From NCBI GenBank assembly GCA_030672605.1, contig DAOVGE010000017.1, forward strand, positions 1 to 47,960: a stretch of 47,960 nt of DNA. The letters are read 5' to 3'. The notes beneath the pieces were generated by a model. It was not told the origin of the DNA. It made no database searches and saw only the letters and a program-made list of their open reading frames with translations. Every line of letters starts with the position of its first letter. Position 1 is the stretch's first letter. A program made the translations under genes and the position numbers. Shown here piece after piece: positions 9,522 through 47,960 of the stretch. The DNA comes from Methanosarcinales archaeon. GTDB taxonomy: Archaea > Halobacteriota > Methanosarcinia > Methanosarcinales > Methanogasteraceae.

Positions 9522-9663
9522 GCGTGAAACGATGAATCGCAATACACAAGCCCGATACTTGAGTGTGGGGTATGATGACTTTGAGGGACTGGCAGGGGTG
9601 TGCGTGGGGGTTGGGGTGGTCGCGTGGCGGAAGGGTTTTGTGAGGTGAATCAAATAATGAAAA

Positions 9664-11152: not shown

Positions 11153-11402
11153 TTTTATTCTCCATGTTTTATTCCGGGATAGCTCTTCTGCACCGATGCC
11201 CCATTTAGCAGAATGGGTGCTCGTGTTACCCATACAAAACAGCGAAGAACCCAACAATCCCACTTGTAGCATTCGCCCATCCACGAAATTCGTATTATAT
11301 ACTTTGTTTAAAATCAGAGAGCAGTCGAGCACGAATGTCTCTCCTGCTAATGGATAACACAATTATCATCCAATGACCCCAATCTTCGATTTCACCGTCC
11401 AA

Positions 11403-11840: not shown

Positions 11841-11980
11841 TCGTACGTCACCATACCAATTTTCGTAATTCTTCGGAAACATTGCGGACGATTTTCGCAC
11901 CACAACGTTATGCATTCGTGATGTAGTGTCAATAGATTGTGAACCATAAAAAGGTGGCTATCCGGTATCTTGCGTGACAG

Positions 11981-34095: not shown

Positions 34096-34788
34096 ATGGC
34101 ATACAATCTCGGCATACCGAAACTAGATGATTTGATCGGGGATATCAGGGGTGGTACGAACATCATGATGATTGGTCCCCCTATGAGTGGGAAAGAGGAT
34201 CTCATAAACATCATCGCATACCGGGGGTTGGTCGATCGCGATGCTGCCGTAATCGTCTCGACGCGGGAGCCAGGAAACAACGTGCTCGAATGGTTCGAAC
34301 GGCGTAACCTGAACATCTCGATGGATAGAATTGGGATTGTGGACTGTGTTACGCGCACCCTCGGGTTTGCCGCACCCGATACCGAGAACATCAAGATGGC
34401 GTCAAGCCCGGTTGATCTCACAGGCATTGGTGTCAAGATCAGCCAGTTCTTTGAACATTTCTGGATGGAGATGCAGCTCAGGGAGACGAGACTGTGCATC
34501 AACTCGCTATCAACGATTCTGATGTACTCGAACCTGCAGACCGTGTTTCGGTTTTTGCACGTCTTCACAGGTCGTATCAAGGCAGCAAATGCGCTCGGCG
34601 TCTACGTGATTGAGGAGGGGATGCACGATGCGCAGACGATTGTGACATTGAAGCAGTTGTTTGATGGCATGATTGAGATAAGGGAAGGGGATGATGGTTA
34701 TCAAATACGGGTTGTCGGGCTCACGCCGAAGCCAACGCCGTGGTTTGATTATGAAGTCAATGGTGTAGATGTTGTACTACGGGGTTAG
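34096..34788 (+). CDS. KaiC/RecA-like protein with degenerate Walker A
   Basis: GIPKLDDLIGDIRGGTNIMMIGPPMSGKE shows the KaiC-type N-terminal layout, but the P-loop ends GKE instead of GK[ST]. Confidence 0.75.
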   Translation: MAYNLGIPKLDDLIGDIRGGTNIMMIGPPMSGKEDLINIIAYRGLVDRDAAVIVSTREPGNNVLEWFERRNLNISMDRIGIVDCVTRTLGFAAPDTENIKMASSPVDLTGIGVKISQFFEHFWMEMQLRETRLCINSLSTILMYSNLQTVFRFLHVFTGRIKAANALGVYVIEEGMHDAQTIVTLKQLFDGMIEIREGDDGYQIRVVGLTPKPTPWFDYEVNGVDVVLRG

Positions 34789-35966
34789 TGAATATGATAG
34801 AGACAGGGATACCGAAGCTAGATGGTTATTTACACGGAGGTGTTCCGGAAGGAAGATCTCTTGTGTACTATACGTACCCCGGCGTAGCTGGTGATGTTTT
34901 CGGGATGCAGACGATATGCCACGCCACATCGAACGGTATACTGGGAGTCTATGTCGCATCCAGTACCGATCCGCAGATGATCCGGGATCAGTTCAGCGAG
35001 TTCGGGTGGGCTACTGAGGACTATAATGGCAGGTTCATTGTGGTGGACGCGTTCTCAGGGCTGATCGGCGCGGATTCGCAGGAACGGTATGTCGTGTCCG
35101 ATCCGGAGGATGTCAACAGCCTGACCCAGTGTATCAAGAAGGTGATGGAAGAGATGAGCGAACCCGGAATCATCGTCTTCGAATCACTCTCGACGATCAT
35201 GGACCTGTGCGGGGAGTCTGAGACCCTTGATGCGCTTGAGGAGTGGAGCCAGTACGCAATGCTCTACGATCATGCGCTGGTTTACAATTTCACGGCATGG
35301 CCCTATTCCGAAGAGACGCTGCTGCACGTGAAGGAGAATGTTTGCAATTCCGTCATCTCTGTTGGTGGAATTACTGGAGACGTTATTTTCGGGCAGTATT
35401 TTGGGGTGCTGAAGGTGGATTGGACGGACATTGCACGGAAAAGCACGTTGTTCAAGGTTTTGAAGCCCGGCGGCATACGCGCGTACATCCCGAAGATACT
35501 GGTCACGGGACCGTTTGATGCTGGCAAATCAACGTTCGTACACGCACTCTCCAACAGGGCGATCTCAGTGGATCGGCTTGGCACAACGATCGCGCTTGAT
35601 CATGGGCATGTGGATCGCAAAGGGTTTGCCGCAGATATATTCGGAACCCCTGGGCAGGAACGGTTCGATCCGATCGTGAAACTGCTCAGCGGAGAGGCAA
35701 TGGGTATATTCCTCCTCCTCGACTCGACAAACACCACTGATTTTAAGAGGGGCAAGCGCATGCTTGAAATCACGGAGTCGTTCGGTCTGCCGGTTGTGAT
35801 CGTCGCAAACAAGCAGGACATGTCAGAAGCGCTCACGCCGGAGGAGATCAGAAGAGAACTGGATATGCCAGCGAATGTACAGATCATGCCCGCGGTTGCA
35901 GCCACCGGAGAGGGCGTCTTCGAGGCATTCGAGACACTGGTCGATATGGTAATGGAGGTGGACTGA
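34788..35966 (+). CDS. Fusion protein: degenerate KaiC-like domain plus small GTPase (CvnD/MglA-like, COG2229-type)
   Basis: The N-domain GIPKLDGYLHGGVPEGRSLVYYTYPGVAGDV has lost the P-loop Lys and Thr. The C-domain has G1 GPFDAGKST, G3 FGTPGQ and G4 NKQD. The GTG start overlaps the upstream stop, with ATG 34794 as an alternative. Confidence 0.8.
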   Translation: MNMIETGIPKLDGYLHGGVPEGRSLVYYTYPGVAGDVFGMQTICHATSNGILGVYVASSTDPQMIRDQFSEFGWATEDYNGRFIVVDAFSGLIGADSQERYVVSDPEDVNSLTQCIKKVMEEMSEPGIIVFESLSTIMDLCGESETLDALEEWSQYAMLYDHALVYNFTAWPYSEETLLHVKENVCNSVISVGGITGDVIFGQYFGVLKVDWTDIARKSTLFKVLKPGGIRAYIPKILVTGPFDAGKSTFVHALSNRAISVDRLGTTIALDHGHVDRKGFAADIFGTPGQERFDPIVKLLSGEAMGIFLLLDSTNTTDFKRGKRMLEITESFGLPVVIVANKQDMSEALTPEEIRRELDMPANVQIMPAVAATGEGVFEAFETLVDMVMEVD

Positions 35967-35967
35967 G

Positions 35968-36330
35968 ATGTCGACATCAGAAATGCTCGGAAAAGTGCTC
36001 GCCGGTCTCGGAAAGGTTGGAGAGATTGAGGCGAGTGCGATATCAACACGGGACGGGCTCCTCATGAATGCGGATATGCACGCCGCTGGCGATCCGGAGA
36101 CTTTTGTTGCAATGTCGGCAACGATGCTCGGCGCAGCAGAGACCGCAACATCCGAACTGGGCAAGAGTGTGCCGAACCGGGTAATCGTGGAGACCGACGA
36201 CGGGAAATTGATATGCATGGGCGCAGGACCAAAAGCGCTAGTGGTTGTGATGACCGCACCGGATGCCGGGCTCGGTCTGGTGCTTGTAGAGATGGCGAAA
36301 GCCGCAGAAAAGATCGAGAGACTGATATGA
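35968..36330 (+). CDS. Roadblock/LC7 (MglB/CvnB-like) protein
   Basis: 120 aa. LAGLGKVGEIEASAISTRDGLLM...VIVETDDGKLICMGAGPKALVVVM is the typical Roadblock pattern. Confidence 0.8.
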   Translation: MSTSEMLGKVLAGLGKVGEIEASAISTRDGLLMNADMHAAGDPETFVAMSATMLGAAETATSELGKSVPNRVIVETDDGKLICMGAGPKALVVVMTAPDAGLGLVLVEMAKAAEKIERLI

Positions 36331-36536: not shown

Positions 36537-36689
36537 TTGACATTCACTAACACGAAACGCAATCTATAGAAATCAGGTATGCGTCGGAGGGGGTGTCCGG
36601 GAGTCCGGCTTGTTGACGCCGGACGCATGGTGATTTTGGGAGTCGGGGGGATTTTGTGGAGACTTTTATTATCTTCGGGAATGGGTTCG

Positions 36690-36753
36690 GAAAACCACAT
36701 AGGACGCGGGGAACGCAGCAACTCTCTGTGCCCTCCGCGTCCTCTGTGGTTAA
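36690..36753. repeat. Family-5 palindromic repeat
   Basis: aaccacataggacgcggggaacgcag / ctctctgtgccctccgcgtcctctgtggtt inverted arms. Confidence 0.65.
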
Positions 36754-36798
36754 TCTTCTTTACCATAACCAGACACTGTCTGAAAATCAAGTGATTTG

Positions 36799-36873
36799 TC
36801 ACCGCGGAGGTTCGCGGAGGTTCGAGATCGTTTTCAACCCTCTGCGTGGCTATGCGCACTCTGCGGTGGAATC
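36799..36873. repeat. Family-5-like palindromic repeat
   Basis: caccgcggaggttcgcggaggttcgag ... ctctgcgtggctatgcgcactctgcggtg. Confidence 0.55.
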
Positions 36874-36948
36874 TACTGGTATGGCGATTTCACTGGAACA
36901 ATCGACCGTGCCCCATAACCCAAGTCACCCGGAAGAGATTAAAAATCC

Positions 36949-37131
36949 TGATTCTGATGGATTCTGTGGTTTCCAATCTTTGCGCCCTTGCGTCATCGCG
37001 TCTTTGCGTTCATCTGATCTAACGCAAGGTCGCAAAGGTATGAGAGACGCAAAGTTGAGAGAGATGCGCCCGCGTTTTTTTGCATACGCGAGGGAGCTAC
37101 CGTTAGCGACCACAGAAAACGTCAGAACCAG
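36949..37131 (+). mobile_element. MITE family 1, copy E
   Basis: tgattctgatggattctgtggtttcc ... gaccacagaaaacgtcagaaccag. Flanks are TAAAAATCC / TAAAAAGCC (8 of 9 identical). Confidence 0.85.
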
Positions 37132-37170
37132 TAAAAAGCCACATGTTGTGATGGTCGCTATCATGCCAGA

Positions 37171-37273
37171 CATTCGTGCAATTCGTACCATTCGTACCAT
37201 TCGTGTTCTAATGCTGCTGATTTTAAACAAAATATATAACGCAAATTTCACGAATGCCACGAATACCACGAAT
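37171..37273. repeat. Family-2 palindromic repeat directly upstream of kinase 1
   Basis: cATTCGTGcaATTCGTAccATTCGTAccATTCGTG, a loop containing aaaatatataac, then ttCACGAATgcCACGAATacCACGAAT. Confidence 0.8.
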
Positions 37274-37302
37274 TTGACTCTCACAGAGTTGTGGGGGGAT
37301 TT

Positions 37303-40140
37303 ATGAACAGTTTCGGATCGGCTGATAATAATAACAGCACGATCGTCCGCAAAGCCGCAGTCTCGATTCTCTTCGGGTTACTCGGCTTTGCAGTGAACTT
37401 CTACCCGATTGATTTCGTCTTTTATGGCTCTTATAAGATGAGCTTCCTGCTCGGTCTCGTATTTCCCATGCTGATAACGCTTGCGTGGGGCTGGCGATAC
37501 GGACTCCTCTCAGCGCTTGCCGGCGGCTGCCAGACGATGTGGATACTCTGGATGCCGGGAAGCGGCTACGGACCGTTCGTATCAGTGCCGCCGTTCACGC
37601 TCTGGATCGTCTGGCTCGGATGGTTCTCACGCACCAGCTACAACCGCAGATACGGAATCTATATCGGAGAGCTGATATTTCGCATCTTCAATACAGCCCT
37701 GCTCTACACCGCCTTCAGGTGGGTCTTCACACTGAACGTGCCCCCCGCAAACACAGTAATGCCGCTTGCGGTAACACACTCGATCGTCTTCAAGGAGGTG
37801 GTGAACGGGCTTTTCATCCTCTTTCTCGCACAAATGATCCTCCAGTCAAACACGGTCAGGCGACTCTTCAGACTGGCGGATGGCGAGGCAGACCCGCGTC
37901 ACACATACATCTACACAAACGCAATCATCCTCGGCAGCATGATGCTGATCTTCCTTGTATGCGAGGTGCATCTCTGGAACGACTGGGCGCCTGATTTCCG
38001 GAATGCCGCCCGCATACTCGGCATGCTATTTCTGATCCTAATAGGGATCCTCTGCACATACCTGGCAGCAGACGCCTTCGCACGGGCGAGGACCATTGAG
38101 ATTCGCCTGGCAAGTGAGCGCATCGAGCATTTGAACGGCGTACTGAAAGCCATCAGAAACGTGAACCAGTTGATAGTGGTTGAGAAGGAGAGGGACCGCC
38201 TTCTTGAGGGTGCGTGCGAGGTCTTAATCGAAGCGAGGGACTACGAAGCGGCATGGCTTGGATTCCTGAAGAGTGACGGGACGTTTGCAACAGTCGAGGG
38301 ATCCGGTTTTCCGGAAGAGGTCTCCTGCTTCTGCAAGCACGTGATGCACGACGACTGCCCGACTTGTATCAGAGATGCGCTCGCCCAAAAGGAGCCTCTG
38401 GTCATGGACCGGTCAAAAGACTGCGGAGATTGCTTCTTAAGAGAGCGATGCGCCGGCAAAGAATCCATAATCCTCCGTGTCGAGCACGATTGTAGACTCT
38501 TCGGGCTGCTTGCCATATTGCTCACATCTGATGCCACCGCAGACGATGAGGAGAAGGAACTCCTGAAAGAGGTTGCAGGAGATATGGCGTTCGCACTCCA
38601 CAACATGGAACTCGAAGAGGCACGAAAAATTGCGGAGAAGACGCTTGCAGAGAGTGAGCGGAAGTATCACCTGCTTGCAGACAACTCGATTGATTGTATC
38701 TGGCAGCTGAATCGCAACCTCGAATTCACGTATGTCAACCCTGCCATTCTCCGGATGTTCGGGTTCACACCGGATGAATGGATCGGAAGTTCGTTATCAG
38801 AATACTGTTCTCCTGAAGCACTGGAGTTTATGTCAGGTCTGGCAAAAGCGGAGCTTGCTAAGGGTCAGGAATTAACTATTGTGATATTTGAAACTCAGTT
38901 GTTTCATAAAAACGGTGGAACGGTTCCTGTCGAGATAACTAGCAGGGTGTTGTTCGACGAGGATGGAAATCCGGCAGGGTTTCAGGGGTCTGCCAGAGAC
39001 ATCACCGAGCGCAAAGAGGCTGAGGATGCACTCCGGGAGAGTGAGGCGCAATTCCGCAACCTGCTTGAGTGCGTCCCGAACGTGGCTGTGTATGGGTACG
39101 GACCCAATGGCACAATCCACTACTGGAATAAGGCGAGTGAGGCAGTGTACGGCTACACAGGAGGGGATGCGATCGGCAAAAACATTTTTGACCTGATAAT
39201 TCCGCCAGAGCTACGAGATGTGATGCGTGAGGCGATCGAGCATGGCGCTCAAACAGGGGAGATGCCAGCGCCATCCGAACTGTCACTCATGCGCAAGGAT
39301 GGTGTGCTTGCTCCCGTGTTCTCGAGCCACGTCGTTTTGAAGCGGCACGGACGCGAGCCCGAACTCTTCAGCGTCGATGTTGATCTGGTCGAGCGCAGGT
39401 ATGTTGAAGCGCGGTTGAGGCGGGCGGTTGATGACCTCAAGCGTTCAAATGAAGAACTGGAGCAGTTCGCGTATGTCGCATCTCATGACCTGCAGGAGCC
39501 GCTGCGCATGGTCTCGAGTTACATGCAGCTTCTGAAGCGGCGCTACGAGGGTAAGCTTGATTCTGATGCCGACGATTTTATAGAGTTTGCCGTGGACGGC
39601 GCAAGCCGCATGCAGACGCTGATTCAGGATTTGCTGATTTATTCGCGTGTGGGCACGCGTGGCAAGCCGTTTGAGCCAACCAACTGCGAGGACGTGCTTG
39701 GGCAGGTGCTCATGAATCTGGCGATCGCTATTGATGAGAGCGGTGCTGTTGTGACTCATAATCCGCTGCCAACGGTTGCGGCTGATTCCTCGCAACTTGC
39801 ACAGCTCTTCCAGAACCTGATCGGGAATGCAATCAAGTTCCATGGCGATGAGCCTCCGCGTGTTCATGTCGCAGCAGAGCAAAAAGGCGACGAGTGGGAG
39901 TTCTCGGTCGCGGACAATGGAATCGGGATCTCGCCTGAGTTCTTTGAGCGCATATTTGTGATATTCCAGCGCCTGCACGGCAGGGACGAGTATTCGGGAA
40001 CCGGGATCGGTCTTGCGGTCTGCAAGAAGATTGTGGAGAGGCACGGCGGCAGGATGTGGGTGGAATCAGAGCAGGGCAAGGGGACGACGTTCTACTTCAC
40101 GATTCCTGCAGTCGCAACAGATGGTGGTGTTTGGGAATGA
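37303..40140 (+). CDS. Membrane sensor histidine kinase 1 (multi-TM N-domain, Cys-rich GAF-like, 2 PAS, HisKA, HATPase_c)
   Basis: About 8 TM helices; a GAF-like block NGVLKAIRNVNQLIVVEKERDRLL; PAS blocks; H-box FAYVASHDLQEPLR; N/G boxes NLIGNAIKFH and GTGIGLAVCKKIVERHGG. GTG 37291 is an alternative start. Confidence 0.9.
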   Translation: MNSFGSADNNNSTIVRKAAVSILFGLLGFAVNFYPIDFVFYGSYKMSFLLGLVFPMLITLAWGWRYGLLSALAGGCQTMWILWMPGSGYGPFVSVPPFTLWIVWLGWFSRTSYNRRYGIYIGELIFRIFNTALLYTAFRWVFTLNVPPANTVMPLAVTHSIVFKEVVNGLFILFLAQMILQSNTVRRLFRLADGEADPRHTYIYTNAIILGSMMLIFLVCEVHLWNDWAPDFRNAARILGMLFLILIGILCTYLAADAFARARTIEIRLASERIEHLNGVLKAIRNVNQLIVVEKERDRLLEGACEVLIEARDYEAAWLGFLKSDGTFATVEGSGFPEEVSCFCKHVMHDDCPTCIRDALAQKEPLVMDRSKDCGDCFLRERCAGKESIILRVEHDCRLFGLLAILLTSDATADDEEKELLKEVAGDMAFALHNMELEEARKIAEKTLAESERKYHLLADNSIDCIWQLNRNLEFTYVNPAILRMFGFTPDEWIGSSLSEYCSPEALEFMSGLAKAELAKGQELTIVIFETQLFHKNGGTVPVEITSRVLFDEDGNPAGFQGSARDITERKEAEDALRESEAQFRNLLECVPNVAVYGYGPNGTIHYWNKASEAVYGYTGGDAIGKNIFDLIIPPELRDVMREAIEHGAQTGEMPAPSELSLMRKDGVLAPVFSSHVVLKRHGREPELFSVDVDLVERRYVEARLRRAVDDLKRSNEELEQFAYVASHDLQEPLRMVSSYMQLLKRRYEGKLDSDADDFIEFAVDGASRMQTLIQDLLIYSRVGTRGKPFEPTNCEDVLGQVLMNLAIAIDESGAVVTHNPLPTVAADSSQLAQLFQNLIGNAIKFHGDEPPRVHVAAEQKGDEWEFSVADNGIGISPEFFERIFVIFQRLHGRDEYSGTGIGLAVCKKIVERHGGRMWVESEQGKGTTFYFTIPAVATDGGVWE

Positions 40141-41519
40141 AAAGGATAGTGATCTTCTGTGTTTTGCTATTTATCATCTCAAGCGGATGTGTAACCGAAG
40201 AAAAACCAACCATGGAGAAGAGAACCGGCGTTAATGCGACATCATCCCATAGCCCGGATAGCAAAGTGAACTGGATGGGGCACTGGCTCATGGATCATGA
40301 CCGCGAAACCCTTGTCCGAGAGGTTGCTCAGGACTTCGAGCTAATGAATCCGGATATAGACGTCAATCTCGAATACCCCCAGCAGATAATGGGCGTGCGC
40401 AGCAGGGAGGAGGTAGGCAAATATATTGCCCGGATGATAACGACTGGCGATATGGAATGGGACGTCGTCTGGATAGATGATGTCATCTACCAGTATACCG
40501 CAGAAGAACTGGGTGATCCGGATTGGGGCGAGAAATACCTTGTGAATTTCGAGAATGTAGAAGGTTTCAAGGAAACACAGAAATCGTTCATCATAGATGA
40601 CCCAGTTTATAGAAAACAGACCGGAGGTATTATAGTAGGTCCGTATATCGAGGGTTATTACTATGTGATTTATTATAATAAAGATGTTGCAGAAAAGATG
40701 GGTATCGAAGTGAAGCAATACGGCATGACATTCGGAGATCTGTTGGGGTATGTCAGGGAAGTTGAAGAGTACAACCAGGAGCACAATACGAGTATCGCTA
40801 CAATATATGAAAGCAAAAATTATATAACTACTGAACTATTATTTCAGAACCTCCTTAAATCCGAACTCGGCGATTTTAACGAAGCCAAAGAAGAAACTGG
40901 TTCGGCAGAGAAGAACGCAGCGCTCTTAAAGACTCTTCAGGCTTTTGAAGAGCTGGGGATGTATGATCCATTGATAGATTCCCACAAGAATAATACATGG
41001 TACCAGACCAGGCATCTCGTATTGGACGATGAGTGCCTCTTCTATGTAAATGGAGTCTGGATGTACAGCCACTGGATGAGTATGGACGAGGAACAGACGA
41101 GAAAGATGGTTCCTGCCGAACTCCCTGTATTTCAGGAGACCGATTACTATCTCGGAGGTTACATCCCGACATGGGCTGTTATGAAGTACGCTCCGAACAG
41201 GGACGAAGGAATCAGGCTTCTTATGTTCTGGAGCACGCCAATTGTCGCTGAGAAATGGGTGCGCTACGCAAAAGCCCCGACCGGACTGGTTGGTCATCTC
41301 AGCACCTCTGATCAGGCAGATGATGTGTTTACACAGTTTCAGTCGGCAATCACAGACCGGTACGGCGGAAATATCCATTACAGCGCGAATGCAGGCTACA
41401 TCTTCGGAGAAGAGAACCGGCTTTTACAGGATGATCTGAATGAGAAGATCATACAGCTGCTGGATGGTGAGATGACCGCAGAGCAGGCTTATGAAGAGAT
41501 TATGGGGCTGGTTGAATGA
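40137..41519 (+). CDS. Lipoprotein, solute-binding-protein-like (SBP paralogue 1)
   Basis: Signal/lipobox MKRIVIFCVLLFIISSGC, and about 460 aa, the size of a type-1 extracellular solute-binding protein. ATGA overlaps join it to the genes on both sides. The family call is tentative. Confidence 0.6.
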   Translation: MKRIVIFCVLLFIISSGCVTEEKPTMEKRTGVNATSSHSPDSKVNWMGHWLMDHDRETLVREVAQDFELMNPDIDVNLEYPQQIMGVRSREEVGKYIARMITTGDMEWDVVWIDDVIYQYTAEELGDPDWGEKYLVNFENVEGFKETQKSFIIDDPVYRKQTGGIIVGPYIEGYYYVIYYNKDVAEKMGIEVKQYGMTFGDLLGYVREVEEYNQEHNTSIATIYESKNYITTELLFQNLLKSELGDFNEAKEETGSAEKNAALLKTLQAFEELGMYDPLIDSHKNNTWYQTRHLVLDDECLFYVNGVWMYSHWMSMDEEQTRKMVPAELPVFQETDYYLGGYIPTWAVMKYAPNRDEGIRLLMFWSTPIVAEKWVRYAKAPTGLVGHLSTSDQADDVFTQFQSAITDRYGGNIHYSANAGYIFGEENRLLQDDLNEKIIQLLDGEMTAEQAYEEIMGLVE

Positions 41520-43057
41520 AGCGCGAACACAAGGGTAGGGAAAACAGGCGTCATCTCAGTCTGAGCTGGAAGATAATTCTGCTTACCATGGTTCCTTTCC
41601 TTATGGTCCTGATAGTCTTAAGCGCACTAACCATCCATGATAAGACCCAGAACGAGCGGGATCTCGTACTGAATAGAATCGATTCGTACGTCAATTTGCT
41701 TGAAAGCGGCGATCTGAGTTTTGAGAGTGTTCGGCAAAAGGAAAAATTGGAAAAGATGTTCGATGAGCGGGTTATATCGTCTGAGCTCATCGGGCGGGGC
41801 GGAAGCGTCGTCTATGCCGCAGGCACCCCGGAACATGAGGTTGATCCGAAACTGATCGAGACTGCGTTCGGGGGTTTCACGGTGACCTACACTATATATC
41901 ACGAAACTCCGGTTCTCATCTCGTTGTATCCGATTATCGTCGAAGAGACTGTAGTTGGAGTCCTTCACCTCGAACTCTCGTTTGAGCGGTCAAATGAGAG
42001 AATCAAGAAATACACGTTCTTTATTCTCCTGCTGAACGCTTACGGTCTGGTTGCTTCGTTCCTGCTGGTCCGGTTCCTCTCGCAGCGAATCGTGATAAGC
42101 CGGATTGAGGCGTTGACTGACATGTCCTCTGAGATCGGCAAAGGAAACCTGCAACACCGGTTGGATATCCGCTCAAACGATGAGCTTGGAATCCTTGCAT
42201 CGGCGTTCAACGATATGGCAGGGGAACTCGGGGAACGAAAGCGGCAACTGGACGAGGAGAGGAGCAAGGTTCTTGATAAGGTGGAGGAACTGGAAGAGCA
42301 GATCACCCGGCGTGAAACTGCGGAGGAAGAGCTGAAACGAACTGTAACTGACCTCAGGCGCTCCAACGCCGAACTCGAGCAGTTCGCGTATGTCGCATCT
42401 CATGATCTACAGGAGCCGCTGCGCATGGTATCAAGCTACATGCAGCTTCTGAAGCGGCGATACGTTGGCAAACTCGATTCTGATGCAGACGATTTCATCG
42501 GGTTTGCCGTAGACGGGGCAAAACGGATGCAGGTGCTGATCAATGACCTGCTGGTCTATTCGCGTGTTGGAACACGCGGGAAGCCGTTTGAACTGACAAA
42601 CTGCGAGGACGTGCTTAGTCAGGTGCTCGTGAATCTGGAAGTTGCTATCGATGAGAGCGGTGCAGTGGTTACTCACGATTTGCTGCCAACGGTTGCGGCT
42701 GATTCCTCGCAACTTGCACAGCTCTTCCAGAACCTGATCGGAAACGCAATCAAGTTCCATGGCGAGGGTGCGCCGCGTGTTCATGTCGCAGCAGAGCAGA
42801 AAGATGGTGAATGGCTATTCTTTGTTGCTGATAATGGCATCGGAATTGGGGATGAGTTCTTTGAGCGCATCTTTGTGATATTCCAGCGTCTGCACGGCAG
42901 GGACGAGTATTCGGGAACCGGGATCGGTCTTGCGGTCTGCAAGAAGATCGTGGAGCGGCATGGTGGCAGGATGTGGGTTAAATCAGAGCAGGGCGAGGGG
43001 GCGACGTTCTACTTCACGATTCCTGCGGTCGCAACAGAAGGCGGTGTTCAGGAATGA
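41516..43057 (+). CDS. Sensor histidine kinase 2 (TM, periplasmic domain, TM, HAMP, HisKA, HATPase_c)
   Basis: TM1 WKIILLTMVPFLMVLIVLSALTI, TM2 FFILLLNAYGLVASFLLVRFL, HAMP ...SNDELGILASAFNDMAGEL, and H-box FAYVASHDLQEPLR. The transmitter is nearly identical to that of kinase 1. Confidence 0.9.
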   Translation: MKREHKGRENRRHLSLSWKIILLTMVPFLMVLIVLSALTIHDKTQNERDLVLNRIDSYVNLLESGDLSFESVRQKEKLEKMFDERVISSELIGRGGSVVYAAGTPEHEVDPKLIETAFGGFTVTYTIYHETPVLISLYPIIVEETVVGVLHLELSFERSNERIKKYTFFILLLNAYGLVASFLLVRFLSQRIVISRIEALTDMSSEIGKGNLQHRLDIRSNDELGILASAFNDMAGELGERKRQLDEERSKVLDKVEELEEQITRRETAEEELKRTVTDLRRSNAELEQFAYVASHDLQEPLRMVSSYMQLLKRRYVGKLDSDADDFIGFAVDGAKRMQVLINDLLVYSRVGTRGKPFELTNCEDVLSQVLVNLEVAIDESGAVVTHDLLPTVAADSSQLAQLFQNLIGNAIKFHGEGAPRVHVAAEQKDGEWLFFVADNGIGIGDEFFERIFVIFQRLHGRDEYSGTGIGLAVCKKIVERHGGRMWVKSEQGEGATFYFTIPAVATEGGVQE

Positions 43058-44478
43058 GAAGGGTGGTGTTCTTCTGTGTTTTATTATTCCTCATCTCAAG
43101 CGGATGCGTAACAGAAGAAAAACCAACCATAGAGAAGAGAACCGACGTTAATCTGACATCAGCTCATGGTTCGGATAAAGAAGTGAACTGGATGGGGCAC
43201 TGGCTTTCCGAATATGGTCGAGAGACCCTTGTGCAGGAGGTTTTTCAGGACTTCGAGCTGATGAATCCAGATATCGATCTCAATCTCAAATATCCACAGC
43301 AAATCATGGGACTGCGTAGTAAACAGGAGACGGCTAAATATATTGCCCGTATGATAACGACCGGAAATATCGAGTGGGATGTCGTCTGGATGGATGATGG
43401 CATATACCAGTTTACCGCAGAAGAACTGGGCGATCCGGGATGGGGGGAAAAATACCTTGTGAATTTTGAGGATGTGGAAGGTTTCAAGAAAACACAGAAA
43501 TCGTTCATCATAGATGACCCTGTTTACAGAAAGCAGACCAGTGGCATTATAGTGGGTCCGTATATCGAGGGTTATTACTATGTGATCTATTATAATAAAG
43601 ATGTTGCAGAAAAGATGGGCATCGAAGTGAAGCAATATAACATGACCTTCGACGATCTTCTGGGGTATGTCAGGGAAGTCGAAGAGTATAACCATGGGCA
43701 CAATACGGATATCGCCGCATTCTATGAAAGCGAAAATTGGATAACTACTGAAATATTATTCCAGAACCTCTTTAAATCTGAACTCGGAGATTTTAGCGAA
43801 GTCAAAGAAGAGACAGGCTCGGAAGAGAAGAACGCAGCTCTATTAAAGACTCTTCAGGCTTTTGAAGAGCTTGGAAAATACGATCCATTGATAGACGCCC
43901 ACAAGAATAATACATGGTACCAGACCCGGCGTCTCGTATTGGACGATGAGTGCCTTTTCTATGTAAACGGCATCTGGATGTACAGCCACTGGATGGGGAT
44001 AGACCAGGAAAAGACGGCAAAGATGGTTCCTGCCAGATTGCCCGTATTTCAGGAGACTGACTACTATCTGGGAGGGTACATCCCGACATGGGCTGTTATG
44101 AAGGACGCTCCGAACAGGGAAGAAGGAATCAGGCTTCTAATGTTCTGGAGCACGCCACTTGTCGCTGAGAAATGGGTGCGCTACGCAAAAGCCCCGACCG
44201 GCATGGTGGGTCATGTGAGTACATCTGATTCGGCAGATGACCCGTTTGAGCAATTCCAGGCAGCAATCACTGAAAAATACGGCGGAAATGTCCATTACAG
44301 CGCGAATGCGGGCTACATCTTCGGAGAAGAGAACCGACTTTTACAGGATGATCTGAATAAGAAGATCATACGGCTGCTGGATGGCGAGATGACCGCAGAG
44401 CAGGCTTATGAAGAGATTATGGGGCTGGTTGAATGGAGAGTGAACATGTGGGGGGACAACGATGAGTACGTGGAGTAA
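43054..44478 (+). CDS. Lipoprotein, solute-binding-protein-like (SBP paralogue 2)
   Basis: MRRVVFFCVLLFLISSGCVTEEKPTIEKRT... is collinear with paralogue 1 throughout. It has 13 extra C-terminal codons because the ancestral TGA is TGG here. Confidence 0.6.
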   Translation: MRRVVFFCVLLFLISSGCVTEEKPTIEKRTDVNLTSAHGSDKEVNWMGHWLSEYGRETLVQEVFQDFELMNPDIDLNLKYPQQIMGLRSKQETAKYIARMITTGNIEWDVVWMDDGIYQFTAEELGDPGWGEKYLVNFEDVEGFKKTQKSFIIDDPVYRKQTSGIIVGPYIEGYYYVIYYNKDVAEKMGIEVKQYNMTFDDLLGYVREVEEYNHGHNTDIAAFYESENWITTEILFQNLFKSELGDFSEVKEETGSEEKNAALLKTLQAFEELGKYDPLIDAHKNNTWYQTRRLVLDDECLFYVNGIWMYSHWMGIDQEKTAKMVPARLPVFQETDYYLGGYIPTWAVMKDAPNREEGIRLLMFWSTPLVAEKWVRYAKAPTGMVGHVSTSDSADDPFEQFQAAITEKYGGNVHYSANAGYIFGEENRLLQDDLNKKIIRLLDGEMTAEQAYEEIMGLVEWRVNMWGDNDEYVE

Positions 44479-47400
44479 GTCCATAGCAATTTTCACGATC
44501 TCCCTGCTTCTTGCCATCTCTCTGTGCGGTCAGCTTTCGTGCGGACAGGAAGAGCCGGCAAAGCGTGTGCTTGTGCTGAATTCGTATCACAAAGGGTTTC
44601 TCTGGACTGACAACACCGTGAAAGGAATTGAGTCGGTCGTGGGATCCGAAGAAAATGATATTGAACTCACGATAGAATATATGGATACCAAATCCATAAC
44701 ATACGATGCCCGGTACAAAGAGAAATTATATGACTTGTATCAATATAAGTACGGTAACCAGACATTTGACATGATCCTATCTACCGATGATAACGCATTT
44801 GATTTTCTTCGCGAGTATTATGAAGACCTATTCCCGGGCACGCCGGTAGTCTTCTCCGGGGTGAATAATCTTGAGGCTCCCAATCTTGTAGACCTGGATG
44901 TATTCACAGGGGTTATTGAGCTTATATCTGTAAAAGAGACGATAGACATTGCTTTAAGCCTGCATCCCGAGACCAGAGAGATCGTCTTTGTTGTTGACAG
45001 CACACCTACGGGAACACAACTCTGGAGCCAGATACAGGGGCTATCCGGACATTACGAAAATATCCGGATGACCCGTATTGATGACAGTTTGTCCATGGAA
45101 CAGATCGAGGAGGATCTAAGCGAGTTATCTGATGACACCATAGTGCTTTTCGTAACCTTGAATCGTGATAAGTCCGGAACGTACCACTCTTCAAAAGAAG
45201 CGGTCCCGCGTGTATGCAGAGCAAGTACGCGACCAGTATACGGGTGCTCTGTCCAGGTTCTGCCACATGGTATCGTCGGGGGCGAACTGATTGGCGGCGT
45301 TTATCACGGTCAGGTCGCAGCAACGATGGCCAAGCGCATTCTGGCGGGGGAAGCGGTGCGGGATATTCCAGTGATAACAGAGCCGCAGACCCAACCCATG
45401 TTTGATTATAATCAGATGCATCGGTGGGGTATCAAGGAGTCTGACCTGCCCGAAGGCAGCATTATTGTCAATAAACCTTATTCATTCTATGAAGAGAACA
45501 AAGGGCTGATCTGGGGTATAATTGCTTTTATGATCGTTCAAACGCTGATCATCGTTGCTCTTGTTGTGAATCGGTCAAGGCGCAAGGCTGCTGAGGATGA
45601 ACTCAGGGAGAGCGAGGATCGATTCCGGACGATTTTTGATTCGATCAATGATTGCGTCTTCATCCATGACATAGAGACCGGAGCGATCCTTAACGCCAAC
45701 AACACGACGTGTAACATGTACGGATATGCCCGCGAGGAACTCCGCAGAATCGATGTGCAAACCATAAGCATGGGCGAAGCGCCGTACGCTCAGGAAGACG
45801 CTATAAAGTGGATACAGAAGGCAGCAGCAGGGGAACCACAGGTCTTTGAATGGAGGGCTAAGCACAAATCCGGACGTCTGTTCTGGGTGGAAGTGAGTAT
45901 GAGAAGTGCGGTCGTTGGGGGGCATGACCGTCTGCTGGTGGTTGCGCGTGACATCACAGAGCGAAAAAGCGCGGAGGAGAGGATGGCACACCTCAACCGT
46001 GTATTGCGTGCCATCAGAAACGTTAGCCAGCTCGTCACAAAGGAACATGACCGGGACCGGCTGCTTCAGGGCGCTTGCAACAACCTTATCGAGACTCGCG
46101 GGTATCACAATGCATGGATCGCCCTGATAGACGGATCAGGGACTCTTGTAACGACTGCCGAAGCAGGACTGGGTGAGGCGTTTGCGCCCATGGTCAACCG
46201 GCTGGAGCATGGGGAGTTGATCGAATGCGGACAGAAGGCGCTTTTGCAATCCGGGGTTGTAATGATAGATGATCCGATTTCTGCCTGCGTGGATTGTCCT
46301 CTGGCGGAGAGGTATGAAGGCAGAAGGGCAATGACCGCCCGGCTGGAACACGAAGGAACGGTTTATGGTCTCTTTTCTGTCGCAGTACCTGCAAAACTTG
46401 CTGCGGACAGGGAAGAGCAGGAATTGTTTAAGGAGGTCGCCGGAGACATTGCTTTTGCCCTGTACAATCTCAAACAGGAGGAGAAGCGCAAACGCGCGGA
46501 AGATGCGCTGGCAGAAAGCGAGAAAAAGCTCTCGCAGATAATTAATGGAAGTTCAACGCCGCTCTTTGTGATTGACAGGGCGCACACAGTCACACACTGG
46601 AACAAGGCGTGTGAGAATCTGACCGGCGTCTCTGCAAAGGAGATGGTGGGAACCAGAAGACCGTGGTCGCCCTTTTATTCTACAGAAAGACCTGTTCTGG
46701 CAGATATTATAGTGGACGGATCAACAGAGGAAGAGATAGCCGGATACTACGGCGGCAAGTTCCGGAAATCAGCTCTTATTGATGGGGCTTACGAGGTTGA
46801 AGATTTCTTCCCGGGGTTTGGCGATAAATGGCTTTTCTTAACTGCCGCGCCATTGAGAGACGACCATGGGGCTGTGACCGGGGCGATAGAGTCCCTGCGG
46901 GATATCACAGAACGCAAAAGCGCGGAGGAAGCGCTGCGTGAGAGCGAGGAAAAGTACAGGGTACTGTTTGAAACCGCTAAGGATGCTATATTCCTGAGTG
47001 ATGAGGCTGGAAAGTTTATTGATGTCAATTCTGCGGCTTCCCTATCGCTTGGATATAGTAGGGAAGAACTGTTAAAAATGAGCAACAAGGAGGTTGATGC
47101 AGACCCGATAGGATACGAAACATTTACGAAAATTCGGGAGGGGGTGGTGAAAGAAGCAGTCTTTGAGGTGAACCATAAGAGGAAAGATGGGACGCTCGTA
47201 CCTGTGGAGATCTCCGAGAAAGCCATCGAAACTGATGGCAGTAAAATCTTCCTGGCGATTGCCCGTGACATCACCGAGCGCAAACGGGCGGATGAGAAAT
47301 TGAAGCGAACCCTGGCAGACCTGAAACGTTCGAATACCGACCTGGAGCAGTTTGCGTACGTTGTATCACACGACCTGCAGGAGCCGCTGCGCATGGTCAC

Positions 47401-47960
47401 TTCTTATGTGCAGCTTTTGTCGCGGCGATACGCTGGCAAGCTCGACTCCGATGCCAATGATTTCATCGATTTTGCCGTGGATGGCGCAAGCCGCATGCAA
47501 ACGCTGATCCAGGACCTGCTGACCTATTCTCGTGTGGGTACACGTGGCAAGCCGCTTACACCGACCGACTGTGAAGAGGTCCTTGAGCGGGTACTCGCCA
47601 ATCTGAAATTAGCTATTGAGGATACCGGTGCGGTGATTACATATAATGCCCTGCCGACCATAAATGTAGATGCCTCGCAACTTAGTCAATTGTTACAAAA
47701 CTTAATCGAAAACGCAATCAAGTTCCATGGCGAGGATGCGCCGCGTGTTCATGTCGCAGCAGAGCAAAGAGATGATGAATGGCTCTTCTCATTGGCTGAT
47801 AACGGCATCGGGATTGCGCCTGAATACTTCGAGCGCATCTTTGTGATATTCCAGCGGCTGCACGGCAGGGACGAGTATTCAGGAACCGGGATCGGTCTTG
47901 CGGTCTGCAAGAAGATTGTGGAGAGGCACGGCGGCAGGATGTGGGTGGAATCAGAGCAGG
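44462..47960 (+). CDS. Sensor histidine kinase 3, 3'-partial (periplasmic ABC-substrate-binding-like domain, TM, PAS, Cys-containing GAF-like, 2 PAS, HisKA, HATPase_c)
   Basis: I translated this frame by eye from ATG 44462 and found no stop up to the window end, which explains its absence from the ORF track. N-domain: RVLVLNSYHKGFLWTDNTVKGIES...IEYMDTK...FDMILSTDDNAFDFL. TM: LIWGIIAFMIVQTLIIVALVV. H-box: FAYVVSHDLQEPLR. Confidence 0.85.
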   Translation, partial: MSTWSKSIAIFTISLLLAISLCGQLSCGQEEPAKRVLVLNSYHKGFLWTDNTVKGIESVVGSEENDIELTIEYMDTKSITYDARYKEKLYDLYQYKYGNQTFDMILSTDDNAFDFLREYYEDLFPGTPVVFSGVNNLEAPNLVDLDVFTGVIELISVKETIDIALSLHPETREIVFVVDSTPTGTQLWSQIQGLSGHYENIRMTRIDDSLSMEQIEEDLSELSDDTIVLFVTLNRDKSGTYHSSKEAVPRVCRASTRPVYGCSVQVLPHGIVGGELIGGVYHGQVAATMAKRILAGEAVRDIPVITEPQTQPMFDYNQMHRWGIKESDLPEGSIIVNKPYSFYEENKGLIWGIIAFMIVQTLIIVALVVNRSRRKAAEDELRESEDRFRTIFDSINDCVFIHDIETGAILNANNTTCNMYGYAREELRRIDVQTISMGEAPYAQEDAIKWIQKAAAGEPQVFEWRAKHKSGRLFWVEVSMRSAVVGGHDRLLVVARDITERKSAEERMAHLNRVLRAIRNVSQLVTKEHDRDRLLQGACNNLIETRGYHNAWIALIDGSGTLVTTAEAGLGEAFAPMVNRLEHGELIECGQKALLQSGVVMIDDPISACVDCPLAERYEGRRAMTARLEHEGTVYGLFSVAVPAKLAADREEQELFKEVAGDIAFALYNLKQEEKRKRAEDALAESEKKLSQIINGSSTPLFVIDRAHTVTHWNKACENLTGVSAKEMVGTRRPWSPFYSTERPVLADIIVDGSTEEEIAGYYGGKFRKSALIDGAYEVEDFFPGFGDKWLFLTAAPLRDDHGAVTGAIESLRDITERKSAEEALRESEEKYRVLFETAKDAIFLSDEAGKFIDVNSAASLSLGYSREELLKMSNKEVDADPIGYETFTKIREGVVKEAVFEVNHKRKDGTLVPVEISEKAIETDGSKIFLAIARDITERKRADEKLKRTLADLKRSNTDLEQFAYVVSHDLQEPLRMVTSYVQLLSRRYAGKLDSDANDFIDFAVDGASRMQTLIQDLLTYSRVGTRGKPLTPTDCEEVLERVLANLKLAIEDTGAVITYNALPTINVDASQLSQLLQNLIENAIKFHGEDAPRVHVAAEQRDDEWLFSLADNGIGIAPEYFERIFVIFQRLHGRDEYSGTGIGLAVCKKIVERHGGRMWVESEQ

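Follow-up and report, generated by a model that had tools for sequence, protein, structure and literature searches.

A candidate extracytoplasmic sensing module of a solute-binding protein and a histidine kinase in a repeat-rich gene array of a Methanosarcinales archaeon

The window, by which we mean the whole 47,960-nt stretch of contig DAOVGE010000017.1 that was analysed, from an uncultured methane-cycling archaeon, ends in an array of five plus-strand genes, K1-SBP1-K2-SBP2-K3, each overlapping the next (Table 1). The first three junctions share an ATGA (40137-40140, 41516-41519, 43054-43057), SBP1 overlapping both of its neighbours, K1 and K2, in this way, and the fourth overlap extends over 17 nt, from the K3 ATG at 44462 to the SBP2 TAA at 44476-44478. 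The ORF list, its translations and the junction sequence, read directly, thus agree with an earlier note on this DNA, which had described five co-directional genes with these four overlaps. Overlaps of 4 nt were seen again in many bacterial and archaeal loci of the SBP family, which speaks for translational coupling. The window lacks a receiver domain, a profile made from 58 such domains having matched none of its ORFs of at least 70 aa, and it encodes no ABC permease. Its sole ABC ATPase is a soluble two-domain protein on the minus strand (191-1912), 35 kb away. The window stops inside K3, a point overlooked in the earlier reading, and whether a response regulator lies nearby cannot be judged from it alone. 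In relatives, REC, REC-GAF and REC-HisKA_2 genes lie directly 3' of the array, and the missing response regulator here is therefore most likely a window-edge effect.

Table 1. Genes, sensor domain and repeats of the array, by window position
Feature	Position	Strand	Description
K1	37303..40140	+	sensor histidine kinase, 945 aa counted from ATG; the ORF opens with GTG at 37291
SBP1	40137..41519	+	460 aa; lipobox-bearing solute-binding-fold protein (predicted), A-type
K2	41516..43057	+	513 aa; TM1, PDC/Cache-like extracytoplasmic domain (predicted), TM2, HAMP, HisKA, HATPase_c
K2 extracytoplasmic sensor domain	41633..42010	+	residues ~40-165; family motif LLESGDLSF
SBP2	43054..44478	+	474 aa; paralogous SBP
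K3	44462..47960 (window end)	+	at least 1166 aa; HATPase_c interrupted by window end
Direct repeat copy 1	39420..41545	+	K1 transmitter core, SBP1, first K2 codons
Direct repeat copy 2	42337..44462	+	K2 transmitter core, SBP2, relic of K2-type start
Third transmitter-core repeat copy (K3 core)	47270..47960	+	~690 bp; 74-78% nt identity to the other two

K2 matches the Pfam families HAMP, HisKA and HATPase_c, and its TM segments (residues 20-38 and 167-185) enclose a loop of ~128 aa, as expected from the TM, periplasmic loop, TM, HAMP input read earlier from the letters. Pfam gave no match to the sensor domain at E values up to 5. The AF2 model of this domain has a pLDDT of 83.6, Foldseek matched it to the sensor domains of WalK, KinD and DctB, and it is predicted to be a single PDC/Cache-like alpha/beta domain between the two TM helices. 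K1 carries GAF, two PAS, HisKA and HATPase_c matches behind a multi-pass membrane domain (residues 1 to ~260) without a Pfam match, and it has no extracytoplasmic domain; the membrane domain is 43% identical to a Desulfobacula protein encoded directly upstream of an SBP (L005:8551-9981). In K3, a signal/TM segment is followed by a 324-aa extracytoplasmic binding-protein domain matching ABC_sub_bind, a TM segment, PAS, GAF, two further PAS, HisKA and HATPase_c; an orthologue with 54% identity lies 3' of a K2-like gene in an Eth-SRB1 contig (L021). K2 alone among the three kinases has the architecture of an SBP-docking receptor. The array cannot be read as a trio of equivalent binding-protein-dependent kinases, K1 having no extracytoplasmic domain and K3 a fused binding-protein domain of its own. 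Both the binding-protein-like domain of K3 and the purely multi-pass membrane N-terminus of K1 had been overlooked in the earlier reading.

SBP1 and SBP2 both match Pfam SBP_bac_8 (46 and 56 bits; cut-off 27) as well as SBP_bac_1, which answers the earlier call for HMM classification and speaks against a non-SBP family. They are 84% identical across 460 aa without a gap, and each starts with a hydrophobic leader that ends in ISSGC, as the earlier description of collinear paralogues with a shared lipobox had it. The 'GC' is kept in the family consensus; the lipobox is imperfect, with Ser at position -3. With the SBP model (AF2, pLDDT 88), the top 50 Foldseek matches in the PDB were ABC-transporter-type SBPs, nearly all of them sugar or oligosaccharide binders, at 12-18% identity. 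The modelled structure indicates that SBP1 and SBP2 are true SBP-fold proteins with an oligosaccharide-SBP-like fold; that the ligand class is carbohydrate-like is a fold-level guess from matches of 12-18% identity. Many Trp, Tyr, Asp and Glu residues are invariant in the family, a pattern that would fit a conserved ligand site. Sequence searches of the PDB and of NCBIfam gave no match to the SBP, and only 228 proteins among 1.84 billion representatives were recovered at E <= 1e-3, with conservation of ~50% identity across phyla. Judged by sequence, the SBPs form a small, sharply bounded, uncharacterised subfamily distinct from transporter SBPs. Their source annotation reads 'ABC transporter substrate-binding protein'. 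With dN/dS at 0.20 between SBP1 and SBP2 and at 0.17 for the kinase cores, both SBP copies and both cores are under purifying selection.

A 2.1-kb repetition of kinase core and SBP, overlooked in the earlier reading, runs through the array as a direct repeat of two ungapped copies at an offset of 2917, with 83-87% nt identity. Near-identical transmitter cores of ~690 bp are common to K1, K2 and K3, and these shared cores appear to drive recombination in the array. Repeat copy 2 retains a relic of a K2-type start (ATGGAGAGTGAACATGTG vs ATGAAGCGCGAACACAAG), and the 14-aa C-terminal extension of SBP2 arose from a TGA-to-TGG change at the former stop/start junction. SBP2 is a mosaic, A-type in its centre and B-type at its 3' end, where it is 96-97% identical to L001_B and L011; SBP1 falls, in the SBP tree, into a clade of copies immediately upstream of K2-type receptors. 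From this we take SBP2 for an older paralogue that gene conversion has in part overwritten and a rearrangement has left behind; its presence is no evidence for a second SBP-kinase pair.

The linkage of SBP and receptor was followed through 78 species-representative genome loci encoding the SBP family. A receptor with the K2 sensor domain adjoins the SBP in 66 of these species-level loci, an almost obligate adjacency that bears out the association between lipoprotein family and kinases that the earlier note had put up for checking. An automatic rule placed a co-directional receptor with two TM segments and a loop of roughly 125-150 aa directly 3' of the SBP in 58 of the 78, and five further loci qualified for a directly following receptor after Pfam or kinase-core checks. 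The iterated K2-sensor profile converged at 72 matches in 72 loci, 70 of them immediately 3' of the SBP and two adjacent in the other orientation, with no match elsewhere in the ~1.4 Mb of DNA examined. Among 68 such receptors, the outputs comprised HisKA (57), HAMP (54), REC (35), MCPsignal (3) and Hpt (3); the SBP-linked receptors thus combine a constant input with a variable output, be it kinase, hybrid kinase or chemoreceptor. A permease and an ATPase stand beside the SBP in only 1/78 loci (L058, a distant family member, with BPD_transp_1 and ABC_tran), in keeping with the earlier suggestion that the lipoproteins are unlikely to serve a transporter. SBP distances followed those of the receptor periplasmic domain at r = 0.78, and still at a partial r of 0.63 once the kinase core was controlled for; with the sensor controlled for, they followed the kinase core far less closely (partial r = 0.16). 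This mirror-tree signal could reflect co-inheritance of the unit together with domain shuffling of the kinase core, not co-evolution of contacts. Three bacterial members of the SBP family use MCP output, and output-less HAMP proteins are also found among the family's partners.

In the SBP tree the archaeal copies of the module are nested within bacterial diversity; the SBP-kinase module is not an archaeal invention. Outside the archaea, the closest copies are those of Seep-SRB1a/Eth-SRB1 bacteria, and some members of this clade are syntrophic partners of ANME-2. The SBP, the K2 sensor, the K3 sensor and the K1 membrane domain are all common to the array and Desulfobacterota; these sensor parts are probably of bacterial origin, and the archaeon probably acquired its module from sulfate-reducing bacteria.

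The SBP-kinase pair recurs without a transporter in dozens of lineages, both bacterial and archaeal, and its most likely role is therefore that of a module dedicated to sensing the outside; we consider it probable that SBP1 and K2 form such a two-gene extracytoplasmic sensing module and are the functional core of the array. SBP1 would be exported and anchored to the outside of the membrane by the lipobox cysteine, with ~22 disordered residues as a linker, and would take up a small, probably carbohydrate-like ligand in its inter-lobe cleft. Liganded or unliganded, it would dock on the single PDC/Cache-like domain of K2, and the signal would pass through TM2 and HAMP to the HisKA/HATPase_c transmitter, which may phosphorylate receiver-domain proteins encoded past the window end. 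SBP2, the second, intact paralogue, most likely serves receptors of the K2 type as well. K1, with its membrane-embedded input and GAF/PAS, and K3, with its fused binding-protein-like domain and PAS/GAF, would act as independent sensors; as the three transmitter cores are almost identical, K1, K2 and K3 probably signal to a common set of receivers. Recombination and gene conversion among the repeats of the transmitter core probably built the cluster and are probably still rearranging it. Literature precedent for the SBP1-K2 module was counted for 10 of 11 SBP-kinase couples (PMC8050422; PMC11113362). The P. aeruginosa kinases AgtS and AruS are not activated by adjacent SBPs (PMC11113362), so that an sbp gene next to a kinase gene is no guarantee of activation. 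For archaea, reviews on SBP signalling and archaeal two-component systems list only the chemoreceptors BasT/BasB and CosT/CosB of H. salinarum, and no histidine kinase that depends on an SBP, in line with the earlier note's remark that binding-protein-dependent two-component sensing is not known to have been dissected in archaea. If our reading is true, K2 would be the first binding-protein-dependent histidine kinase in archaea.

Other readings of the locus have to be weighed against this one. The SBPs may be ordinary or dual-use proteins of an ABC importer whose other genes lie elsewhere in the genome, the adjacent kinase reflecting expression regulation or dual use as with ChvE, MBP and the chitin-binding protein CBP. 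Dual use of SBPs is established (PMC8050422), SBP_bac_1/8 are transporter-associated families, the annotation speaks of ABC transporters and L058 does adjoin importer genes. We nevertheless hold this to be unlikely, since neither the window nor its close relatives, nor 77 of the 78 loci, have a permease or importer ATPase beside the SBP, the family stands sharply apart from transporter SBPs, and its linkage to one sensor domain whatever the output, chemoreceptors and output-less HAMP proteins included, would not be expected of a kinase that does no more than regulate a transporter gene.

It is quite unlikely, in our view, that the SBP-fold protein has ceased to bind small molecules and now serves the K2-type receptor as a constitutive accessory subunit, for example as a scaffold or negative regulator in the manner of YycH/YycI on WalK. 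Foldseek matched the K2 sensor best to extracellular domains of WalK and to an integrative model of WalK-YycH, which would suit this idea, and the very high conservation of the family could mark a protein-protein interface; however, invariant aromatic and acidic residues in NWMGHW, WDVVW, GPYIEGYYY, NGxWMYSHW and AEKWVRY follow predicted beta strands of both lobes and would fit a preserved sugar-type cleft (a mapping from sequence), and every characterised receptor-coupled SBP in a review binds ligand (PMC8050422). A pairing of SBP2 with K3 instead of K2, with a B-type SBP binding to the ABC_sub_bind domain or working together with it and the array holding two different SBP-kinase pairs, seems very unlikely. 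It would account for the B-type 3' end of SBP2, for the 17-nt overlap and for the B-type SBP directly before an ABC_sub_bind gene in the window, L011 and L013, but these three contigs are closely related and hence not independent observations. A K3-type gene directly follows K2, with no SBP between, in L006, L009, L010 and the bacterial L021; in L004 a B-type SBP precedes REC-kinases; and the relic downstream of the old SBP2 stop is that of a K2-type start codon region. An SBP that docks on a fused binding-protein domain is without known precedent.

The SBP1-K2 module as we read it resembles LuxP/LuxQ, TorT/TorS, XylFII/LytS and HptA/HptS, in which the sbp gene adjoins a transmembrane kinase gene without transporter genes (PMC8050422) and the receptor ectodomain lies between two TM helices; by analogy, liganded SBP would be expected to modulate the kinase (PMC8050422). 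None of these systems is archaeal, and the SBP families are unrelated: LuxP, TorT, XylFII and HptA belong to Peripla_BP_1/4 and SBP_bac_11, whereas those here are divergent SBP_bac_1/8 proteins, and sequence or profile searches of the PDB with the SBP recovered none of the four. Their receptors are dCache-like, HBM-like or four-helix, unlike the single PDC/Cache-like domain of ~125 aa predicted for K2. The Pfam families SBP_bac_1 and SBP_bac_8 are also represented in GltB/GtrS of P. aeruginosa and NspS/MbaA of V. cholerae, where the SBP stimulates a sensor kinase or a c-di-GMP enzyme (PMC8050422); unlike the situation here, GltB is at the same time the SBP of a glucose ABC transporter encoded next to it, and NspS is a small polyamine-type SBP with a GGDEF-EAL protein as partner. 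MsmE, RafE, MalE3, GacH, SmoF and TMBP resemble our SBP in size, in the aromatic-rich sequence and in the two-lobe fold (TM-score 0.61-0.75, normalised to target), at 12-18% identity and with no significant match by sequence alone; they are ABC-transporter SBPs, unlike the present family, which has no adjacent permease or ATPase (1/78 loci excepted). For the K2 sensor, the closest structural match is the extracellular domain of WalK (YycG), at only 10-13% sequence identity. WalK has the same architecture (TM, single PAS/PDC-like ectodomain, TM, HAMP, kinase), but it is a Firmicute cell-wall regulator, and its ectodomain is regulated by YycH/YycI, partner proteins that are not SBP-fold. Within the archaea, BasB/BasT and CosB/CosT of Halobacterium salinarum likewise have lipoprotein SBPs that adjoin, and act through, a membrane receptor and not a transporter (Kokoeva 2002, via PMC8050422); BasT and CosT are chemotaxis transducers with SBPs of the Peripla_BP_6 and OpuAC types, whereas the candidate described here joins a histidine kinase to an SBP of the SBP_bac_1/8 type.

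The five co-directional genes at 37303-47960 that an earlier note on this sequence had described were recovered from the ORFs and their translations. Three sensor histidine kinase genes (K1, K2 and K3) alternate with two lipoprotein genes of the solute-binding-protein fold (SBP1 and SBP2), and direct reading of the junctions bore out three ATGA stop/start overlaps, including that between SBP1 and K2, and one 17-nt overlap. By Pfam, a HisKA phospho-acceptor (H-box), with the sequence FAYV(A/V)SHDLQEPLR, and HATPase_c are found in all three kinases alike. The N-terminus of K1 is a multi-pass membrane region with at least five strongly hydrophobic segments within its first 256 residues, and this region had no Pfam match. 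K3 begins with a leader/TM segment, followed by a 324-residue extracytoplasmic segment, a second TM segment and then the cytoplasmic domains; its extracytoplasmic segment (window 44462-45520) matches ABC_sub_bind (PF04392) marginally, at 26.9 bits for a cut-off of 25.9. In L013, one of the fetched loci, a separate 361-aa ORF adjoining the SBP gene (L013:1933-3018) scores 187.6 bits on PF04392. A 216-aa ORF at 36656-37306 and an 83-aa gene call at the same place in the related contig L001 resemble low-complexity non-coding sequence and were dropped.

Genes of the kinase-SBP array, with Pfam domains
Gene	Position	Strand	Length	Domains
K1	37303-40140	+	945 aa	GAF, two PAS, HisKA, HATPase_c
SBP1	40137-41519	+	460 aa	SBP_bac_8, SBP_bac_1
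K2	41516-43057	+	513 aa	HAMP, HisKA, HATPase_c
SBP2	43054-44478	+	474 aa	SBP_bac_8, SBP_bac_1
K3	44462 to window end	+	at least 1166 aa	ABC_sub_bind, PAS, GAF, two PAS, HisKA, HATPase_c

As had been proposed, the two lipoproteins are paralogues with a common lipobox: they are 84% identical without gaps, and both have a hydrophobic leader (residues 1-19) ending in ISSGC, of which the 'GC' is kept in the family consensus. They score above the Pfam cut-offs for both SBP_bac_8 (46.3 and 56.0 bits; cut-off 27) and SBP_bac_1 (35.0 and 38.9 bits; cut-off 26). An AlphaFold2 model built from a 35-sequence alignment (pLDDT 88, pTM 0.85) has two alpha/beta lobes and a hinge, and the disorder that it predicts for residues 17-38 suggests a tether following the lipobox cysteine. 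Foldseek matched this model with probability 1.00 to MsmE, GacH, MalE3, RafE, SmoF and others (TMt 0.61-0.75), which are oligosaccharide-binding ABC SBPs at 12-18% identity. Because model and Foldseek place the lipoproteins in this company, and the Pfam scores agree, we found them to be SBPs and not members of some other family. A sequence search of the PDB with the SBP found no match, nor did any NCBIfam model match it, and the family profile gave weak matches alone in the PDB, to MsmE-type sugar binders. Searched against 1.84 billion representative proteins, the profile found 228 matches at E <= 1e-3 and 113 at E <= 1e-30. The family is thus a distinct island within the SBP fold. It is also unusually conserved, with ~50% identity between archaea, cyanobacteria, Planctomycetota and Proteobacteria, and its invariant Trp, Tyr, Asp and Glu residues are grouped in the motifs NWMGHW, WDVVW, GPYIEGYYY and NGxWMYSHW. 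Two distant family members from Bacteroidota, at 35-40% identity, have no receptor: one (L054:6525-9839) adjoins alpha-amylase and cyclomaltodextrinase genes, and the other (L058:8361-9910) adjoins a BPD_transp_1 permease and an ABC ATPase. These neighbourhoods hint at an alpha-glucan-type ligand and a transport-linked ancestry of the family. A search of the bacterial SBP neighbourhoods for a common regulated pathway, as a clue to the ligand, gave nothing consistent; hydrogenase, restriction-modification, sugar metabolism and amylase genes occur once each.

The input region of K2 had been read as a TM segment, a loop, a second TM segment and HAMP, and this architecture held, with TM segments at residues 20-38 and 167-185 enclosing ~128 residues. 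Word-indexed homologue searches with the K2 sensor (the extracytoplasmic domain, residues ~40-165) returned few and mainly short proteins, so the alignment used for structure prediction had 13 rows. In the resulting AlphaFold2 model of residues 1-235 (pLDDT 83.6), the TM1 helix runs into a long helix (16-64), followed by a five-stranded alpha/beta domain, a helix (157-208) leading into TM2, and HAMP. The best Foldseek matches of the sensor were the extracellular domains of WalK/YycG, then KinD, DctB and Cache chemoreceptor domains (E 2e-5 to 1e-3). The K2 sensor had no match in Pfam up to E = 5, Cache models included, and among 68 receptors with this sensor we found one weak sCache_3_2 and one weak dCache_1 match to the Pfam Cache models. 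By its predicted structure, the K2 sensor is a single PDC/Cache-like domain of an unannotated family.

We then asked how SBP and receptor are arranged across genomes, using one genome per species and 78 loci with this SBP. These came from archaea (ANME-2c, other Methanosarcinales, Woesearchaeota), from Desulfobacterales, Desulfobulbales (including Electrothrix), Thiodiazotropha and Rhodocyclaceae, and from cyanobacteria, Chloroflexi, Phycisphaerae and Planctomycetota, Verrucomicrobiota, Kiritimatiellales and Pontiella, and Bacteroidota. An automatic rule found a two-TM receptor with a loop on the same strand and directly 3' of the SBP gene at 58 of the 78 loci, and Pfam or kinase-core checks added five more; the loop has a median length of 138 aa (66 downstream ORFs with at least two predicted TM segments). 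K2 shares homology with the receptors downstream of SBPs over its first 190 residues, and the alignment contains the motif LLESGDLSF. An iterated K2-sensor profile converged on 72 matches at 72 loci in ~1.4 Mb of fetched DNA, 70 of them directly 3' of an SBP gene and two adjacent in another orientation, and it had no match away from an SBP in that DNA. Counted by genome locus, a receptor with the K2-type sensor adjoins the SBP in 66/78, across more than 10 phyla. The outputs of 68 such receptors vary: 57 have HisKA, 54 HAMP, 35 an added receiver and ~20 PAS, with GAF (4), the MCP signalling domain (3) and Hpt (3) being rarer, and a few have no output domain at all. The latter, located after SBP genes and away from contig ends, consist of sensor, TM and HAMP alone in 292-353 aa (L046:11364-12254; L033:11347-12363; L075:11425-12486, equal to L085:9446-10507; also the homologues P0129-P0134). 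A permease and an ATPase lie beside the SBP at one of the 78 loci, that of a Bacteroidota member at 35% identity (BPD_transp_1 and ABC ATPase). SBP distances co-vary with those of the receptor periplasmic domain (r = 0.78; partial r = 0.63 given the kinase core), while the partial correlation with the kinase core of the same receptor is 0.16 given the sensor. This co-divergence lends indirect support to a physical contact between SBP and receptor. Because the SBP/sensor input is constant, the outputs are interchangeable and a transporter is absent, the pairing of SBP and sensor domain is the signature of a sensory module. The survey thereby defines a compact, previously unannotated two-gene module, comprising one SBP subfamily and one Cache-like sensor domain, that is found in many uncultured sediment lineages, among them ANME-2, Seep-SRB1a/Eth-SRB1, cable bacteria, Kiritimatiellota, Planctomycetota and Thiodiazotropha symbionts.

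One homologue, P0154 (L088:5001-8039), is a 1012-aa fusion of an SBP-family domain with two TM segments, HAMP, Hpt and HATPase_c. An in-frame signal peptide is missing, such that its SBP domain would be cytoplasmic, and the protein may be genuine or may stem from a misassembly or a frameshift. As it comes from one run assembly alone and lacks that signal peptide, we set it aside as a Rosetta-stone link.

The array itself carries the marks of repeated rearrangement. A gap-free 2.1 kb direct repeat (39420-41545 and 42337-44462, offset 2917, 83-87% identity) comprises a transmitter core, an SBP gene and ~25 nt of the following gene, and K3 holds a third, ~690-bp copy of the transmitter core. The SBP1/K2 junction, GAATGAAGCGCGAACACAAG, recurs 3' of SBP2 as GAATGGAGAGTGAACATGTG, which shows that SBP2 once preceded a K2-type gene, and comparison of the two copies attributes the 14-residue C-terminal extension of SBP2 to a TGA-to-TGG change. 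In the SBP tree there are two archaeal paralogue clades: the A-type sits directly upstream of K2, and the B-type comprises the SBP of L011 and L013 and, in L001 and L004, the second SBP. SBP2 is a mosaic of both: over 43258-44007 it matches a close relative's A-type gene at 93-97% identity, and over 44158-44448 it matches B-type genes at 96-97%. A very recent tandem duplication was rejected, given that the copies are 13-17% apart in DNA, that several lineages have the B-type paralogue and that SBP2 is mosaic. Both repeated parts are under purifying selection (dN/dS 0.20 for the two SBP copies and 0.17 for the two kinase cores). We took the array's context from relatives 93-96% identical to the window; in L001 and L002 the flanking genes are this similar and the array content differs. 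L001 has an additional 661-aa PAS kinase gene (L001:12910-14895) between K2 and its second SBP, and in L006, L009 and L010 a K3-type gene directly follows K2. The cluster, we infer, continues to be rearranged by unequal recombination and by gene conversion between the repeated cores; the ~690-bp transmitter-core repeats seem to act as recombination substrates. The proposal of a binding-protein-dependent array is supported in part, for one conserved SBP-receptor pair within a recombining kinase cluster. The DHp/CA cores of K1, K2 and K3 are near-identical (84% between K1 and K2), and this likeness suggests that the three kinases may phosphorylate the same receivers.

The statement that no response regulator lies nearby is correct within the window, where a profile of 58 receiver domains found none in any ORF, but does not extend to relatives of the array. 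The window ends inside K3, and genes with receiver (REC) domains follow the array in L004, L009, L010, L012 and L084. In L012, which shares the window's upstream synteny, these are REC-GAF proteins, REC-HisKA_2 kinases and stand-alone REC genes; L009 and L010 have REC-PAS proteins, and L004 has six REC-containing genes. Since relatives that extend further have REC genes after the array, the absence of receivers is probably a window-edge effect. That no transporter accompanies the SBPs was upheld for the window, whose single ABC ATPase is a soluble two-domain protein 35 kb away. This 573-aa protein, encoded at 191-1912 (-), has a pair of ABC_tran domains, lacks a membrane domain and is unlikely to form part of an importer. 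No ABC transporter genes were found after the array in the flanks of the same five relatives, so relatives give no support to an ABC operon lying just past the edge of the window.

Together, these observations make it probable that SBP1 and K2 form an SBP-dependent sensor. SBP1 would be exported and then tethered through its lipobox cysteine, where it would bind a small, probably carbohydrate-like ligand, as the modelled fold suggests, and dock on the PDC/Cache-like domain of a K2 dimer. HAMP would relay the change to the K2 transmitter, which would phosphorylate the REC proteins of the genes that follow. For SBP2, the target is most likely a receptor of this type too, and K1 and K3 may supply independent inputs into one output. 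As a caveat, the kinases AgtS and AruS of P. aeruginosa are not activated by their adjacent SBPs (PMC11113362), though there a transporter operon adjoined. The SBPs could instead serve transport, purely or in a dual role, with an importer encoded elsewhere; with permease and ATPase genes at a single surveyed locus we consider this explanation unlikely. A role for the SBP as a ligand-less accessory subunit, as YycH/YycI with WalK, recalls the WalK/YycG domains that head the structural matches of the K2 sensor; the conserved aromatic and acidic motifs of the SBP would fit a ligand cleft, and we regard such a role as rather improbable. A pairing of SBP2 with K3, the gene that it overlaps, seems very unlikely to us; the relic of a K2-type start behind SBP2 points to the other kinase. 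In our preferred reading of SBP1-K2 as a sensor, the locus is a specific candidate, open to testing, for an archaeal kinase that senses extracellular signals through a binding protein. Since the SBP is soluble and strongly conserved, one ligand screen could assign the signal of the whole family.

The relationships of the module cross the archaeal-bacterial divide. A neighbour-joining tree without support values nests the Methanosarcinales SBPs in a Desulfobacterota-rich clade, itself within wide bacterial diversity. In the nearest bacterial copies the SBP is 63-68% and the K2 sensor 48-54% identical, on contigs of ~40% GC, whereas the archaeal contigs have 47-51%. Among these copies are those of Desulfobacula (L005, where the neighbouring genes are clearly bacterial), Eth-SRB1 (L021) and Seep-SRB1a sp. 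5 str. SM7059A (L017), a strain that a published study assigns to a consortium with ANME-2a (PMC10553843). The ectodomain and first PAS of K3 are 54% identical to the product of L021:10008-12401, the next gene after the K2-like one in Eth-SRB1, and because of this orthologue the K3 input domain is likewise common to both domains of life. The K1 membrane domain (window 37303-38100) is 43% identical to the N-terminus encoded at L005:8551-9981 in Desulfobacula, a PAS protein without a kinase domain directly upstream of the SBP, and the cassette may thus have K1-type membrane domains as its third conserved part. Because the likeness covers the K3 ectodomain and K1 membrane domain, whereas the kinase cores are only ~28% identical, sensor parts seem to have passed between Desulfobacterota and ANME-2-type archaea and to have been combined with transmitter cores specific to each lineage. 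On the tree, archaea more likely received these parts from bacteria than the reverse, a direction that it does not firmly establish. The Seep-SRB1a/Eth-SRB1 clade includes syntrophic partners of ANME-2, and the closeness of the copies in the two groups is relevant to questions of gene exchange, and of communication, in methane-oxidising consortia. It is conceivable, if doubtful, that the SBP, K2 sensor and K3 sensor are a cassette common to ANME-2 and this clade by which both perceive the same cue and coordinate syntrophy. If so, both partners would carry the same extracellular receptor, for a cue such as a consortium-matrix oligosaccharide or a partner-derived signal.

The rest of the window encodes archaeal housekeeping functions, among them 4-HFC-P synthase (methanofuran synthesis), ProRS, IGPS, FlaD/E and the GTP cyclohydrolase FolE2. 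Three genes arranged like an operon occupy 34096-36330 (+), directly upstream of the kinase array, and are kept in L001, L002 and L012. They encode a KaiC-like DUF7504 protein of 230 aa, a 392-aa protein in which a KaiC ATPase domain is fused to a Ras/Arf-like small GTPase, and a 120-aa Roadblock/LC7 protein, a set that recalls a GTPase switch of MglA/MglB type coupled to a KaiC module. Another stand-alone KaiC-like ATPase (14706-15449 (-), 247 aa) adjoins a DUF2298 membrane protein, bringing the KaiC-family genes in the window to three. A Bro-N domain protein is encoded at 9664-10530 (+) beside ORFs without a family match, and GC around it (~8000-12000) is 0.43-0.48 as compared with ~0.52 elsewhere; this stretch may be the remnant of a virus or integrated element.

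Established SBP-stimulated receptors include LuxPQ, TorTS, XylFII-LytS, HptAS, ChvE-VirA, GltB-GtrS and NspS-MbaA, and the archaeal SBP-coupled receptors are the chemoreceptor pairs BasB/BasT and CosB/CosT alone (PMC8050422). Archaeal histidine kinases are mostly cytoplasmic, 62% having no TM regions (PMC6944256), and M. acetivorans has only 8 membrane-bound ones among its 53 (PMC11784639). In the open-access literature, neither reviews nor recent primary papers on two-component systems of archaea mentioned SBP-dependent kinases, and nothing relevant was found there on ANME kinases or SBPs. SBP1-K2 is a candidate for the first SBP-dependent histidine kinase in archaea. The LuxPQ, TorTS, XylFII-LytS and HptAS proteins were absent from phmmer and profile searches of the PDB with the SBP, and their SBPs belong to other Pfam families (PMC8050422). 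The present module resembles the established systems in its proposed working logic but belongs to none of their families: its SBP is a separate SBP_bac_1/8 subfamily and its receptor domain an unannotated, single Cache-like one.
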